A stretch of DNA of 64,000 nt, from NCBI RefSeq assembly GCF_003334765.1, contig NZ_QOWT01000002.1. One strand, written 5' to 3'. Both the position numbers and the translations under genes were made by a program. Below are positions 3,610 through 54,471 of this stretch, piece by piece. Position 1 is the first letter of the stretch. Each line of letters begins with the position of its first letter. This stretch comes from Escherichia coli. GTDB taxonomy: Bacteria > Pseudomonadota > Gammaproteobacteria > Enterobacterales > Enterobacteriaceae. Below the pieces are notes generated by a model. The model searched no databases and was not told the origin of the DNA. It saw only the letters and a program-made list of their open reading frames with translations.

Positions 3610-4965
3610 TTATTGCTGACGTTGCACCCACTCTTTTAGCGCCTGACGTGAAATTTTAATACCGCCGTTTTTCAGCTCCGGCGGCAGAGTTAGCCAGCGC
3701 ACCGGTTGTTGAAAACGGGCCAGCTTATCTTTCACCCATTCACTAAGATCAACGCTCTCGTGGTCATACTCCATCACCGCCACCGGTCGATGACCAAACT
3801 CCTTGTCGGCAACGGGGACGATAAACACCTGCAAAACCGCAGGATGTGCAGCAATTACGCGCTCGACTTCTTCCGGCTGAATACCCTCTCCGCCACTGAA
3901 GAATAGATTGTCTAAACGTCCGACAATGGTCAGCTTGCCATTATGCATCTCACCGCGATCGCGCGTAGCGTACCAGCCTTCGTCATTAACCAGTGAAACC
4001 AGTTGCCCGTTACGCCAGTAACCTTCTGCCATACTGGCAGCCCGCAGCCACACTTCATTATTAACGATTTTCACTTCCCGACCCGGCAGCGGCGAACCAA
4101 CGTCTGCCAGGCCGTCGGCTTCTTTCGCACACACCGTGGAGGCAAACTCGGTCAGACCATAGCCGCAAAAGCAACGAATCCCCTGCTCGCGCGCCTGTTC
4201 CGTCAACTCGACCGGGATAGCCGCGCCGCCAAGTAACACCGCTTTCAGGGAAACGGAACTACGGTTAACCAGCAAACGCCAGAGTTGTGTTGGCACCAGT
4301 GAAGCGTGAGTACAGCCTGCCAGCATTTGCTCCAATGGCTGTTTATCACGTACCGTCATCCGCGCACCAGCGTATAACCAGCGCCACATAATTCCCTGAC
4401 CGGAGACGTGAAACAGCGGTAAAGAGAGCAACCAATCATCGTGATCGCCAAACGGAATCAGCGATAACACACCTTGCGCACTGGCAAGATGGGCCTGATA
4501 AGTATGGACAGCGGCTTTCGGCAAACCGGTAGAACCCGAGGTCAACGTCATTGAGCACAGACGCGTCGGCTGCCACGTAGCGGCATGTGCGCCTTCAACC
4601 AGCTGAATGTGCAGCGACGTTAATGCCGGAAACGTGTTTTCCCCATCCGGCACCAGAGCAAATTGCAGCGTCAGATTGGGCAGCAATTCTTCAAGCAACG
4701 GTTGCGGCAGCTGAGGGTTCACGGGCAACACCCGCGCCCCGCATTGCAGTAACGCCAGCCAGGCGAGCAGCGTTTGCGGCGTATTCCACGCCCGCAACAT
4801 CACGCCGCTGCCCTCAACCACCCCCTGCACCGCAAATCCGGAGGCTAATTCATCGACGCGAGCACAAAGCTCGCGCCAGTTGAGTTGCTCGTCATTAAGA
4901 CGTAAGGCGATGGTTTCTCCCCGCACTTGCCGCCAGTGACGCCACGGCCAGTCAGAGAAGATCAT
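3610..4965 (-). CDS. menE: MenE, o-succinylbenzoate-CoA ligase
   Basis: 451-aa ORF with AMP-binding motif [10 protein letters not shown]; start overlaps menC stop; men operon context. Confidence 0.95.
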
Positions 4966-51669: not shown

Positions 51670-52563
51670 ATGAACATAGTGATCACCGGAGGGACAGGAT
51701 TAATTGGTCGCCATTTGATTCCGCGTTTGCTGGAGCTGGGCCATCAAATTACGGTAGTGACGCGTAACCCGCAGAAAGCCAGTTCCGTTCTCGGCCCTCG
51801 GGTGACACTATGGCAAGGGCTTGCCGATCAAAGCAACCTCAACGGCGTTGATGCGGTAATCAACCTGGCCGGAGAACCGATTGCTGATAAACGCTGGACT
51901 CACGAGCAAAAAGAGCGTCTCTGCCAAAGCCGCTGGAATATCACGCAAAAACTGGTCGATTTGATTAATGCCAGCGACACGCCACCGTCGGTACTCATTT
52001 CCGGCTCGGCAACGGGCTATTATGGTGACTTAGGTGAAGTGGTGGTTACCGAAGAGGAACCGCCGCATAACGAATTTACCCATAAACTCTGCGCTCGCTG
52101 GGAAGAAATTGCCTGCCGGGCGCAAAGTGACAAAACGCGAGTGTGCCTGCTGCGTACCGGTGTAGTGCTGGCACCGGATGGCGGTATTCTCGGTAAAATG
52201 CTGCCGCCGTTTCGTCTTGGCCTGGGCGGGCCGATTGGCTCTGGTCGGCAGTATCTGGCCTGGATTCATATTGATGATATGGTCAACGGTATTCTCTGGC
52301 TGCTGGATAACGAGCTGCGCGGGCCATTTAATATGGTTTCGCCCTACCCGGTACGCAATGAACAATTTGCCCATGCGCTCGGTCATGCGCTGCATCGCCC
52401 GGCCATTTTGCGCGTCCCCGCGACCGCCATTCGACTGTTAATGGGCGAATCTTCAGTACTGGTATTAGGTGGACAACGCGCGCTGCCTAAACGGCTGGAA
52501 GAAGCGGGTTTTGCGTTTCGCTGGTACGATTTAGAAGAGGCGCTGGCGGATGTCGTTCGCTGA
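51670..52563 (+). CDS. yfcH: YfcH, NAD-dependent epimerase/dehydratase-family protein
   Basis: 297-aa ORF with N-terminal Rossmann motif ITGGTGLIG. Confidence 0.9.
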
Positions 52564-52610
52564 TGTGGTTTACAGCAAACATCCGCCAGTTAACTCCCGG
52601 TGTTACAGGA

Positions 52611-53501
52611 TTAGTGGCTTTGCGCGATAAGATCGTCTGGTGAAAGTCGGGTCACCATCATAACTAACTCTCTGTCTAAACCTCTATCCAGCATCTCCTG
52701 AGCAATACGCAGGGCTTCTTCGTGTTTGCCCTGCATTGCGCCTTCTTCACGTAATCTGTCAGCAATGGTCATCAGTTTCTCCTTTTCTTGTGGTGCGCGT
52801 TCCGCTATCTCACCAATAAATGCACGAAAACGCTGGGCATCCCCTGTTTGTAATACGTAATTAAACAGGGCTTTTAGCTGTCTGTCATTAGTGTTCCCTG
52901 TAACTAGCAGCGAAACAATTTGGTCGACTAATCCCAACAGATCGCGCTGACGAATATGTTTCTGAATTAACTCCAACAGCGCCATTTTGCGGTGTTGCAT
53001 AATCTCGTCATCCGGCACCACGGTAATATCCACCAACGGAAAAGCCGATGAATATATTTTGCGGGCTATAGCAGGCTCGGCAAATTCATCAAGCCAGCAG
53101 AGTGAATAAGGATAAGGACTTCTGCAACCATGATAAAACAGCATCGGGAGCACCAATGGAAGCTCTTTATAGCCCGCATCAAGATGGTTTTGCATTGCCG
53201 CAATGGAATAACGCATCATGCGAAAAGCCATTAATTCTTCCGGCTTACTTTGGTGCTCTATCACTACATAAATATAACCCACTCCCTCCTGCGTTTTCAC
53301 AGACCACAAGAGGTCGGAATAATATTGCCGCAGGTCTTCATCAATAAAACTGTTTGGTTCCAGTTTAAGCGTCGTTAAATCACACAGTTTGCGCAGCGGC
53401 GCGGGAAGATGAATATCAATAAAATCCCGCGCGGTGTCTGGATGGCGTAAAAAAGATTTAAATACCGCATCATGCGGCGTGGAAGTTGTCGATATTGTCA
53501 T
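52611..53501 (-). CDS. rpnB: RpnB (YfcI), recombination-promoting nuclease of the transposase_31/PD-(D/E)xK family
   Basis: 296-aa ORF recognised as YfcI/RpnB; solitary, no terminal inverted repeats seen. Confidence 0.88.
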
Positions 53502-53667
53502 GGCGTTCCGTCACCCCTCAAATTTAAGATGACGCGACAATAACCACGATTAACACCCAATGCAGCAGGCAGTTTTTATCTTTGGACAGCGAATTCAGAA
53601 GTATTTTTAGCGGACTGTAACTTTTACATTTCAGCGGAAGCTGACTCGCAAATTCCCCATGAAAATA

Positions 53668-53691
53668 CTCCGGCAGCGTTAGCCACCGGAG
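53668..53691 (-). terminator. Hairpin just downstream of hisP (candidate operon terminator)
   Basis: CTCCGG...CCGGAG 6-bp stem with long loop, followed on the minus strand by UAUUUUC. Confidence 0.4.
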
Positions 53692-53697
53692 AGGAAA

Positions 53698-54471
53698 TTA
53701 TTTCAGCGATCCCTTAAGGAACCGTTGCAGACGAGGGCTTTGCGGGTTGCCAAATAACTGCTCCGGCGCGCCCTCTTCTTCTATTTTCCCCTGATGGAGG
53801 AAAATGACATGAGTAGAAACATGGCGAGCAAAGCCCATTTCGTGAGTCACTACCACCATGGTTTTCCCCTCTTCTGCCAGTTGCTGCATAATACGCAACA
53901 CTTCGCCTACCAGTTCAGGATCGAGCGCCGAGGTAGGTTCATCAAACAGTAAAACTTCCGGTTCCATCGCCAGCGCCCGCGCGATAGAAACACGCTGTTG
54001 CTGACCGCCGGAAAGATGCACCGGATATTTCCCCTGCGCACGTTCGTCTATCCCGACTTTTGCCAGATACTTCACCGCCCGCTCGCGCGCTTCCTGCTTG
54101 CTCAGGCCCAACACCTGAATCGGCGCTTCCATGACGTTTTCCAGCACCGTCATATGGCTCCAGAGATTGAAGTGCTGGAATACCATCGTCAGGCGTGTGC
54201 GCAGTAAGCGCAGTTGATTTTTATCGGCGACTTTGAGTTGACCGTCTTTGTCGCGCACCAGATTGATCGTCTGGCCATTGACCACGATCGACCCTTCACT
54301 CGGTTTTTCGAGGAAGTTAATGCAGCGCAGAAAGGTACTTTTCCCCGATCCCGACGATCCGATGATGCTTATTACATCTCCGGCATTCGCTTGCAGTGAT
54401 ACCCCTTTCAGCACTTCATGTTCGCCGTAGCGTTTGTGCAAATCGATAACGTTTAATTTATTCTCGGACAT
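53698..54471 (-). CDS. hisP: HisP, histidine/lysine-arginine-ornithine ABC transporter ATPase
   Basis: 257-aa ORF with Walker [10 protein letters not shown], signature LSGGQQQR, Walker [12 protein letters not shown]. Confidence 0.97.

Follow-up and report, generated by a model that had tools for sequence, protein, structure and literature searches.

The rpn genes of Escherichia coli have been described as genes that carry a second, internal start in the same reading frame. Ribo-RET peaks at in-frame internal sites of rpnA to rpnE were reported by Meydan et al. in a preprint (10.1101/520783), Ribo-RET and Onc112 peaks are on record in all rpn genes (10.1101/520783; PMC10400941), and dRNA-seq places a start site inside every one of them (PMC10400941). 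The two-product arrangement was shown experimentally for rpnB itself by Zhong et al. (2023, PNAS, PMC10400941), and the toxicity of RpnB-L, the SOS induction and the specific neutralisation by RpnB-S are all published for this gene. In that study SPA-tagged RpnB-S, encoded on the chromosome, was detected by immunoblot; the RpnB-L* variant, in which the iTIS/RBS was mutated and RpnB-S abolished, inhibited growth more strongly than the wild type; supplied in trans, RpnB-S neutralised RpnB; and RpnB-dependent SOS induction was blocked by RpnB-S and not by RpnA-S, a block that was abolished by a stop codon at D29 of RpnB-S (PMC10400941). For RpnA, the same authors found that the tagged small protein was lost in an iTIS mutant and that DNA cleavage was inhibited in vitro, and they described the crystal structure of RpnA-S as well as an L2S2 complex, which comes apart at alkaline pH (PMC10400941); a commentary by Koonin (PMC10400984) summarises the same model. 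In the work of Kingston et al. 2017 (PMC5350276), deletion of rpnA-D left basal recombination unchanged and RpnB was among the more toxic paralogues.

RpnA-L and RpnA-S resemble their RpnB counterparts in having the same domain, catalytic residues that bear the same numbers, and an M244 that stands behind AAGGAG (PMC10400941). The two small proteins differ in length, RpnA-S having 49 aa and RpnB-S 53 aa with one more four-residue unit in helix 1, and they do not cross-protect (PMC10400941); in vitro inhibition of the nuclease, the L2S2 complex and the pH dependence of its dissociation have been measured for RpnA only. A second comparison is offered by RpnE and the free-standing RpnS gene ypaA (rpnE-Ss), which, like RpnB-S, starts with MTIAERL-type sequence behind an AAGGAG, in its case MTIAERL itself. 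The existence of ypaA as a gene of its own shows that the C-terminal module is able to function as a separate protein. Unlike rpnE with ypaA, rpnB has no adjoining free-standing copy, and tblastn identified no other RpnB-S-like ORF in the window (the whole stretch of 64,000 nucleotides of E. coli DNA analysed here). The plasmid-borne RpnP2 L/S pair of ECOR13 belongs to the same family and has the same gene-within-gene layout as rpnB (PMC10400941); RpnP2 protects against T-even phages (PMC10400941) and is the sole Rpn for which this has been shown, whereas rpnB is chromosomal and lies among housekeeping genes.

Two broader classes of element also invite comparison. In classical type II toxin-antitoxin systems a protein antitoxin likewise binds a protein toxin and is present in excess; these systems, however, consist of two adjacent genes, whereas the antitoxin of rpnB is the toxin's own C-terminal domain, which behaves in a manner resembling a dominant negative and co-evolves with the toxin. 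Insertion sequences, whose ISNCY label is attached to proteins of this kind, are like rpnB patchily distributed among strains and present as several paralogues per genome. Unlike them, rpnB has no inverted repeats, no target duplication and no DDE-type fold, and occupies one chromosomal place.

Against this background, a sequence-only reading of the window had stated that Rpn genes are reported to encode an internal small protein that antagonises the full-length nuclease, and had called the arrangement toxin/antitoxin-like. The statement was right and applies to rpnB, and the phrase is now the published description (PMC10400941). The L/S arrangement of rpnB is already known, having been established by experiment in this same strain, and the finding is correct and not new. 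What we add to it is minor: numbers on its hypervariability in the population, two classes of allele, a candidate promoter in four paralogues, and a remnant of rpnB in genomes from which the gene is absent.

The rpnB locus and the nuclease domain of RpnB-L

The following features define the locus.

52611..53501, minus strand: rpnB (b2305, formerly yfcI), full-length ORF encoding RpnB-L, 296 aa plus stop (ORF list, K-12 identity, TIGR01784)
52875..53480, minus strand: Transposase_31 / PD-(D/E)XK nuclease domain, residues 8-209 (Pfam PF04754, E 2.8e-90)
52543..52589, minus strand: stable hairpin directly 3' of the rpnB stop, between rpnB and yfcH, overlapping the yfcH stop (RNA fold)
53502..53697, minus strand: intergenic region upstream of rpnB, with a hisP terminator-like hairpin at 53691-53668 and weak promoter-like matches only

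The 4,501 nt around rpnB are 100% identical to E. coli K-12 MG1655 (NC_000913.3, 2420000-2424500; K-12 coordinates equal window coordinates + 2,370,038), in which the ORF is annotated as rpnB, b2305, 'recombination-promoting nuclease RpnB'. An ATG-to-stop ORF of 296 codons occupies exactly the interval 52611-53501 that the sequence-only reading had assigned to rpnB, on the minus strand, which that reading had left out. It had also described the gene as solitary, in line with tblastn searches using RpnB and its last 53 residues, which returned no other match at E<0.5 in the window. In K-12 as in the PGAP genomes, RefSeq has one CDS at this locus. The gene is flanked by the convergent yfcH and by hisP, and its neighbours folX, yfcH and hisJQMP are housekeeping genes.

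The rpnB stop is separated from yfcH by just 47 nt and a hairpin. The hairpin has a folding energy of -31.8 kcal/mol (z -5.07), equalled by 0 of 200 shuffles, and is a probable transcript-end structure; its outer edge also forms the left-hand junction between genomes with and without rpnB, considered below. Judged by position, a putative promoter for full-length rpnB would lie in 53502..53697. An Rfam scan of 52300-53900 at E<=1 identified no RNA family.

The assignment of RpnB to the transposase_31 family of PD-(D/E)xK nucleases is borne out both by the PF04754 match and by the conservation of the catalytic residues: D11, D63, E82, Q84, R94 and D165, the last within the PDDEI acidic cluster, are all present in RpnB at RpnA numbering. 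The positions considered here are those mutated in RpnA by Kingston et al. 2017 (PMC5350276). Among the NCBIfam models, TIGR01784 ('Rpn family recombination-promoting nuclease/putative transposase') matched with 186.9 bits against a cut-off of 52.1, the 'RpnA' equivalog model scored RpnB under its cut-off, and NF007418 ('ISNCY family transposase') gave 459 bits, under its curated cut-off of 583.

The internal start and the fold of RpnB-S

Three further features lie within the 3' part of the gene.

52611..52772, minus strand: rpnB-S, in-frame internal ORF from the ATG of M244 (52772-52770) to the shared stop, 53 aa, M244-H296
52779..52784, minus strand: Shine-Dalgarno sequence of the internal site, AAGGAG, encoded by K240-E241, 6 nt before the ATG
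52860..52888, minus strand: candidate internal promoter for a short rpnB-S transcript, ATGACA (52888-52883), 17 nt, TTTAAT (52865-52860), within codons N205-N214 (prediction)

The candidate internal C-terminal small ORF put forward by the sequence-only reading is real: it begins at the M244 ATG behind AAGGAG with a 6-nt spacer, and is published for rpnB. The Met codons that had been noticed in the tail are there and in frame (M244, M256, M270, M281 and M282), as is the quoted 15-letter motif beginning LKALFNY, at residues 209-223. The proposed extent, a C-terminal third from LKALFNY onward, has to be revised, the product being the last 53 residues (18%) of the protein and beginning MTIADRL. 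From residue 189 to M244 the frame is devoid of ATG, GTG and TTG codons, and a product that starts near LKALFNY (residue 209) is therefore impossible.

The Shine-Dalgarno sequence of M244 pairs with the 3' tail of 16S rRNA with a duplex energy of -8.7 kcal/mol, the best among all internal ATGs. The annotated rpnB start has the same pairing energy with a poorer geometry, its SD-like GAGGGG lying about 11-12 nt from the ATG. A masking of the internal start by RNA structure was rejected, as the RNA around M244 is not extra-structured (z +1.2 relative to shuffled sequence). Counted from M244, residue 29 is D272, and no other Met gives an Asp at this position; the D29 stop mutant in the literature is consistent with no start but M244, which identifies the published RpnB-S as the M244 ORF.

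The paralogue comparison that had been proposed as a check revealed an SD and ATG at the homologous position in all five K-12 paralogues and in ypaA. In rpnA, rpnC, rpnD, rpnE and ypaA the SD reads AAGGAG, AGGGAG or GGAGGGGAG and is separated by 5-6 nt from the ATG of the homologous MTIAERL / MTLAQW motif. Differences in the encoded residues leave this arrangement intact: the SD of RpnD is encoded by R-E and that of RpnC by G-G-E, with the same distance to the ATG. The free-standing ypaA starts exactly at the homologous Met with the same SD. In the 8 sequenced alleles of rpnB itself the SD does not vary. The locus thus codes for two proteins that oppose each other; translation of RpnB-S and the internal transcript are as reported in the cited papers.

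These observations bear on two other accounts of the tail. It could be argued that rpnB makes a single product, that the internal AAGGAG and ATG are a by-product of encoding K-E-K-L-M, and that the tail is only a nuclease domain. The SD is indeed encoded by the conserved K240 and E241, so that constraint on the protein could account for some of the conservation of the SD, and the single annotated CDS in K-12 and PGAP genomes points the same way. We nevertheless consider this extremely unlikely, given that the paralogues encode their SDs with other amino acids at an unchanged distance from the ATG, that ypaA exists as a free-standing gene starting at the homologous Met, and that the tagged small protein is lost in the rpnA iTIS mutant while RpnB-S in trans neutralises RpnB (PMC10400941). 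Alternatively, a small protein might be made from elsewhere, either from M256 (41 aa) or from a codon further upstream. M256 is preceded by a weak SD-like GAAGAAGG (-4.8 kcal/mol), yet this Met is absent from the 300-aa alleles described below, which have I or L there; an upstream start is countered by the stretch from residue 189 to M244 that is free of start codons; and both run against the D29 mutant (PMC10400941) and against the crystallised RpnA-S chain, which aligns from RpnB residue 244. A start other than M244 is accordingly very improbable, and we keep to M244.

RpnB-S and RpnA-S are 43% identical (E 1e-10), and in a phmmer search residues 1-48 of the 49-aa RpnA-S chain in PDB 7TH0 align to RpnB 244-295 (E 0.0026). 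An AlphaFold model of RpnB-S, built from a nine-sequence alignment, has a pLDDT of 81.8 and helices at residues 3-29 (long), 34-41 and 45-49; the PDB entry that it matches best is 7TH0, 'E. coli RpnA-S' (probability 1.00, TM 0.69/0.78, rmsd 2.2 A). RpnB-S is thus predicted to share the RpnA-S fold, a three-helix bundle with a long first helix. Neither full-length RpnB nor the 53-aa product matched Pfam DUF4351 (PF14261), the free-standing RpnS-like family, at E<=10, so that kinship to RpnS proteins rests on the match to RpnA-S and 7TH0. The remaining Pfam matches to the 53-aa product were insignificant (Cas3-like_C_2, RecX_HTH2 and PPR, E >=0.08). Designer pentatricopeptide proteins in the PDB, which phmmer matched at E values down to 3e-10, were rejected as a repeat artefact rather than homology; these scores add up some ten weak repeat matches to residues 253-287, and each of those matches taken singly has E >100.

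Upstream of the internal start, a PWM scan identified ATGACA-17-TTTAAT as the best sigma-70-like site within 200 nt of the iTIS. The hexamers are identical in rpnA and rpnE and lie at the same distance from the iTIS, the -10 ending 87 nt before the internal ATG, and rpnD carries a variant, ATGACA-18-TAAATT, one nucleotide closer to its internal ATG. Across rpnA, rpnB, rpnD and rpnE the codons AAT GAC, CTG and AAT are identical, synonymous positions included. TTTAAT is a poor -10 that lacks the consensus A at position 2, which is why the stock promoter scan leaves the element unlisted. The LKALFNY point singled out by the sequence-only reading coincides with this candidate promoter and not with the start of RpnB-S. 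From its position, a short transcript would begin about 80 nt upstream of M244, and the element would be an internal promoter common to the four genes, through which the ratio of antitoxin to toxin would be set. No entries for the rpnB region occur in the supplements of the Cappable-seq and SMRT-Cappable-seq papers, and the internal promoter therefore stays a prediction.

Variation, possible loss and the transposon question

We then considered rpnB across E. coli. The gene was found in 4,745-4,756 of 5,426 complete genomes, on the chromosome and in one place per genome, and every inspected locus except that of AR_0077 has it at the yfcH-hisP position; RpnB is also present in E. fergusonii. The two parts of the gene vary to very different degrees. 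The 162-nt S-coding part is less than 95% identical to K-12 in 2,121 of 4,756 genomes (45%), with 2,092 genomes at >=99% identity, 543 at 95-99%, 841 at 90-95% and 1,280 at 80-90%, whereas the 729-nt nuclease part (residues 1-243) falls below 95% in only 3 of about 4,750 genomes (0.06%). For the 56 nt that surround the SD and ATG, 3,912 genomes match exactly and none of the 4,756 drops below 95% identity. Likewise, in an alignment of eight alleles, 24 of the 57 amino-acid columns after M244 are variable compared with 8 of the 243 before it (Fisher p 1.7e-13), and mean pN/pS is 0.47 in the C-terminal part compared with 0.06 in the N-terminal part (pS 0.175 and 0.078, respectively). The dense blocks of substitutions suggest mosaic replacement. 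Gene conversion from the K-12 paralogues was considered as a source of the RpnB-S variants and found no support: a blastn-short comparison of the eight allele tails with rpnA, rpnC, rpnD, rpnE and ypaA gave only matches of <=20 nt.

The variation includes a difference in length within the first helix.

52728..52751, minus strand: four-residue-repeat hypervariable stretch in helix 1 of RpnB-S, K-12 REEG-AMQG (residues 251-258) (allele alignments)

Alleles of 296 aa carry REEG-AMQG, and alleles of 300 aa carry REEG-RNDG-LILG, with 12 additional nt placed 11 residues after M244. Four-residue repeats have been located 8-20 residues after the internal Met (PMC10400941), and the RpnB indel falls inside this reported range; a simple tandem duplication of the adjacent 12 nt does not account for the extra sequence. 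With two and three units respectively, the 296-aa and 300-aa alleles may split E. coli into RpnB classes whose long and short forms do not fit one another, an incompatibility of the kind engineered for RpnC.

About 12% of E. coli genomes lack rpnB. In two of these (L007 and L014) the gap between yfcH and hisP measures 158 nt, and its 28-nt filler together with the left junction matches the rpnB interior at 53028-53057, on the same strand, at 25 of 30 positions, a match equalled by 0 of 500 shuffles. Such a 30-nt remnant of the rpnB interior is what a deletion would leave behind, and is not expected of an unoccupied target. This comparison of junctions suggests that rpnB may be ancestral at the yfcH-hisP position, its absence reflecting a deletion and not the lack of an insertion.

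A further account would make rpnB the transposase of a degenerate or unconventional insertion sequence, with the tail as its DNA-binding domain. The Pfam family is named Transposase_31, the gene is still often annotated 'ISNCY family transposase' or 'putative transposase', NF007418 yields the 459 bits given above, the gene is patchily distributed among the 5,426 genomes, and each E. coli genome holds 4-8 related copies, some of them on plasmids. That score, however, is below the curated cut-off, and the paralogues have about 70% DNA identity and so are not copies of one element. The sequence-only reading had seen no flanking inverted repeats and had concluded that this is not an active transposon, and on both counts the searches agree. 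Terminal inverted repeats are lacking around rpnB: in a search for flanking inverted and direct repeats the sole pair spanning the gene has one arm in rpnB and the other in hisP (16 nt, 88%) and is a chance match. A comparison of the junctions of occupied and rpnB-less sites gave no target-site duplication, and the rpnB-less site keeps its match to the rpnB interior. Moreover, the gene has one chromosomal place per genome in 4,756 of 4,756 genomes, and no autonomous transposase with a PD-(D/E)XK fold is known (PMC10400941). An insertion sequence or autonomous transposon was thus rejected for want of inverted repeats, duplication and near-identical copies, a conclusion also reached in PMC10400941; we regard the transposase reading as effectively refuted and give it next to no credence.

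The intragenic toxin-antitoxin module and its significance

Taken as a whole, rpnB is very probably to be explained as a gene-within-a-gene toxin-antitoxin module, and nothing in the sequence contradicts this. To that explanation the present work contributes the initiation signals, their conservation, the modelled fold, and the C-terminal hypervariability that lies beside fixed initiation signals. In this module RpnB-L (296 aa) is a PD-(D/E)XK DNA endonuclease, which causes DNA damage and toxicity if nothing opposes it, and RpnB-S is made in the same frame from the internal SD and ATG, probably mostly from a shorter transcript begun inside the gene. RpnB-S, predicted to be a three-helix bundle, is identical to the domain at the C terminus of RpnB-L. 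On the model of RpnA, it would bind that domain via its long helix 1 and thereby keep the nuclease inactive, and the geometry of the RpnB complex may likewise be L2S2. Specificity would be set by the number of four-residue repeats in helix 1, as suggested by RpnA and RpnC. Because toxin and antitoxin share codons, their co-variation is automatic.

As for defence, PADLOC 2.0 returned no match for RpnB-L or RpnB-S, the locus, with its neighbours folX, yfcH and hisJQMP, is not in a defence island, and the literature reports a phage phenotype for RpnP2 and none for RpnB; a role of RpnB in phage defence may be envisaged by analogy with its plasmid relative. It is possible, although we lean somewhat against it, that a shared internal promoter, an ancestral and since deleted rpnB, and incompatible allele classes together exceed the published account.

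The locus also has implications for annotation, since RefSeq lists one CDS where two opposing proteins are encoded, and many records still label relatives of rpnB as transposases. Finally, an internal SD and ATG, conserved among paralogues and directly followed by a hypervariable stretch, is a recognisable signature of an intragenic antitoxin and can be searched for in other toxin genes, and rpnB is a useful positive control for such a scan from sequence.

Promoter-like sequence upstream of the internal start codon

We identified a promoter-like sequence inside rpnB, upstream of the internal ATG (M244) from which the 53-residue product RpnB-S starts in frame.

52860-52888, minus strand: ATGACA-17-TTTAAT, within rpnB codons N205-N214

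The same ATGACA-17-TTTAAT lies equally far upstream of the internal ATG in rpnB and in the paralogues rpnA (L010) and rpnE (L012), and rpnD (L013) has a near-identical counterpart at the same relative position. Furthermore, all four genes make identical synonymous codon choices at this site. As judged from these sequence comparisons, it is a candidate internal promoter, common to rpnA, rpnB, rpnD and rpnE, that would drive short transcripts.

Within the C-terminal module that RpnB-S shares with the full-length nuclease RpnB-L, residues 253-287 (window 52640-52745) matched designer pentatricopeptide-repeat proteins in a phmmer search of the PDB, with whole-sequence E-values down to 3e-10. Each of these scores adds up roughly ten weak hits, in which a single 19-residue RpnB helix-turn-helix segment aligns with one repeat after another. 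We therefore set the resemblance aside as a likely repeat-protein artefact, since every single-repeat match has an individual E-value above 100.

The rpnB-yfcH boundary and genomes that lack rpnB

A stable structure is predicted between the convergent genes rpnB and yfcH.

52543-52589, between rpnB and yfcH: hairpin, fold -31.8 kcal/mol, z -5.07

This hairpin, which takes in the stop codon of yfcH, is probably a transcript-end structure common to both genes; the rpnB-strand sequence shows no clear U-tract. The outer edge of the hairpin coincides with the left end of the presence/absence polymorphism of rpnB. In two E. coli genomes that lack rpnB, yfcH and hisP are spaced by 158 nt (L007 2664-2823; L014 1364-1523). 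When these loci were set against window 52581-52589 and 53028-53057, their 28-nt filler together with the left junction proved identical at 25 of 30 positions to the rpnB interior on the same strand (window 53028-53057), a score reached by none of 500 shuffles. Because the filler resembles the rpnB interior in this way, the absence of rpnB at this site suggests loss by deletion, rather than a site that was never occupied. Such a deletion possibly proceeded through the microhomology ATCC(G/A)CCA.

Natural disruptions and allelic variation

Several natural rearrangements of rpnB were also found. In E. coli ST2747 (NZ_CP007394.1; L015 1480-1700), a deletion joins rpnB to a truncated yfcH after about residue 31 of RpnB-S, so that both rpnB products lose the final two helices of their common C-terminal module; rpnB and yfcH are both annotated as pseudogenes there. 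In strain SEC470 (NZ_CP007594.1, 2648824-2650951), rpnB is split in two by an IS1B insertion. In strain AR_0077 (NZ_CP026755.1; L008 1-3373), nhaC and a trans-sulfuration enzyme gene replace yfcH 3' of rpnB, and the RpnB tail has a different ending, SPEELLNQKQ; the altered neighbours and tail together place the rearrangement breakpoint either at the end of the RpnB-S coding sequence or inside its last part.

Finally, differences between RpnB-S alleles (window 52611-52772 compared with loci L001-L008) fall in dense blocks between identical stretches: a block of four-residue units, repeated in differing number in helix 1, a 13-residue block replaced by MEKGFDHEVILTL, and a tail block. Synonymous divergence is higher in the RpnB-S part (0.175 vs 0.078 in the nuclease part). 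The K-12 paralogues were considered as donors of the variant blocks and rejected. On sequence grounds, the block pattern looks like mosaic replacement from donors outside the K-12 paralogues.
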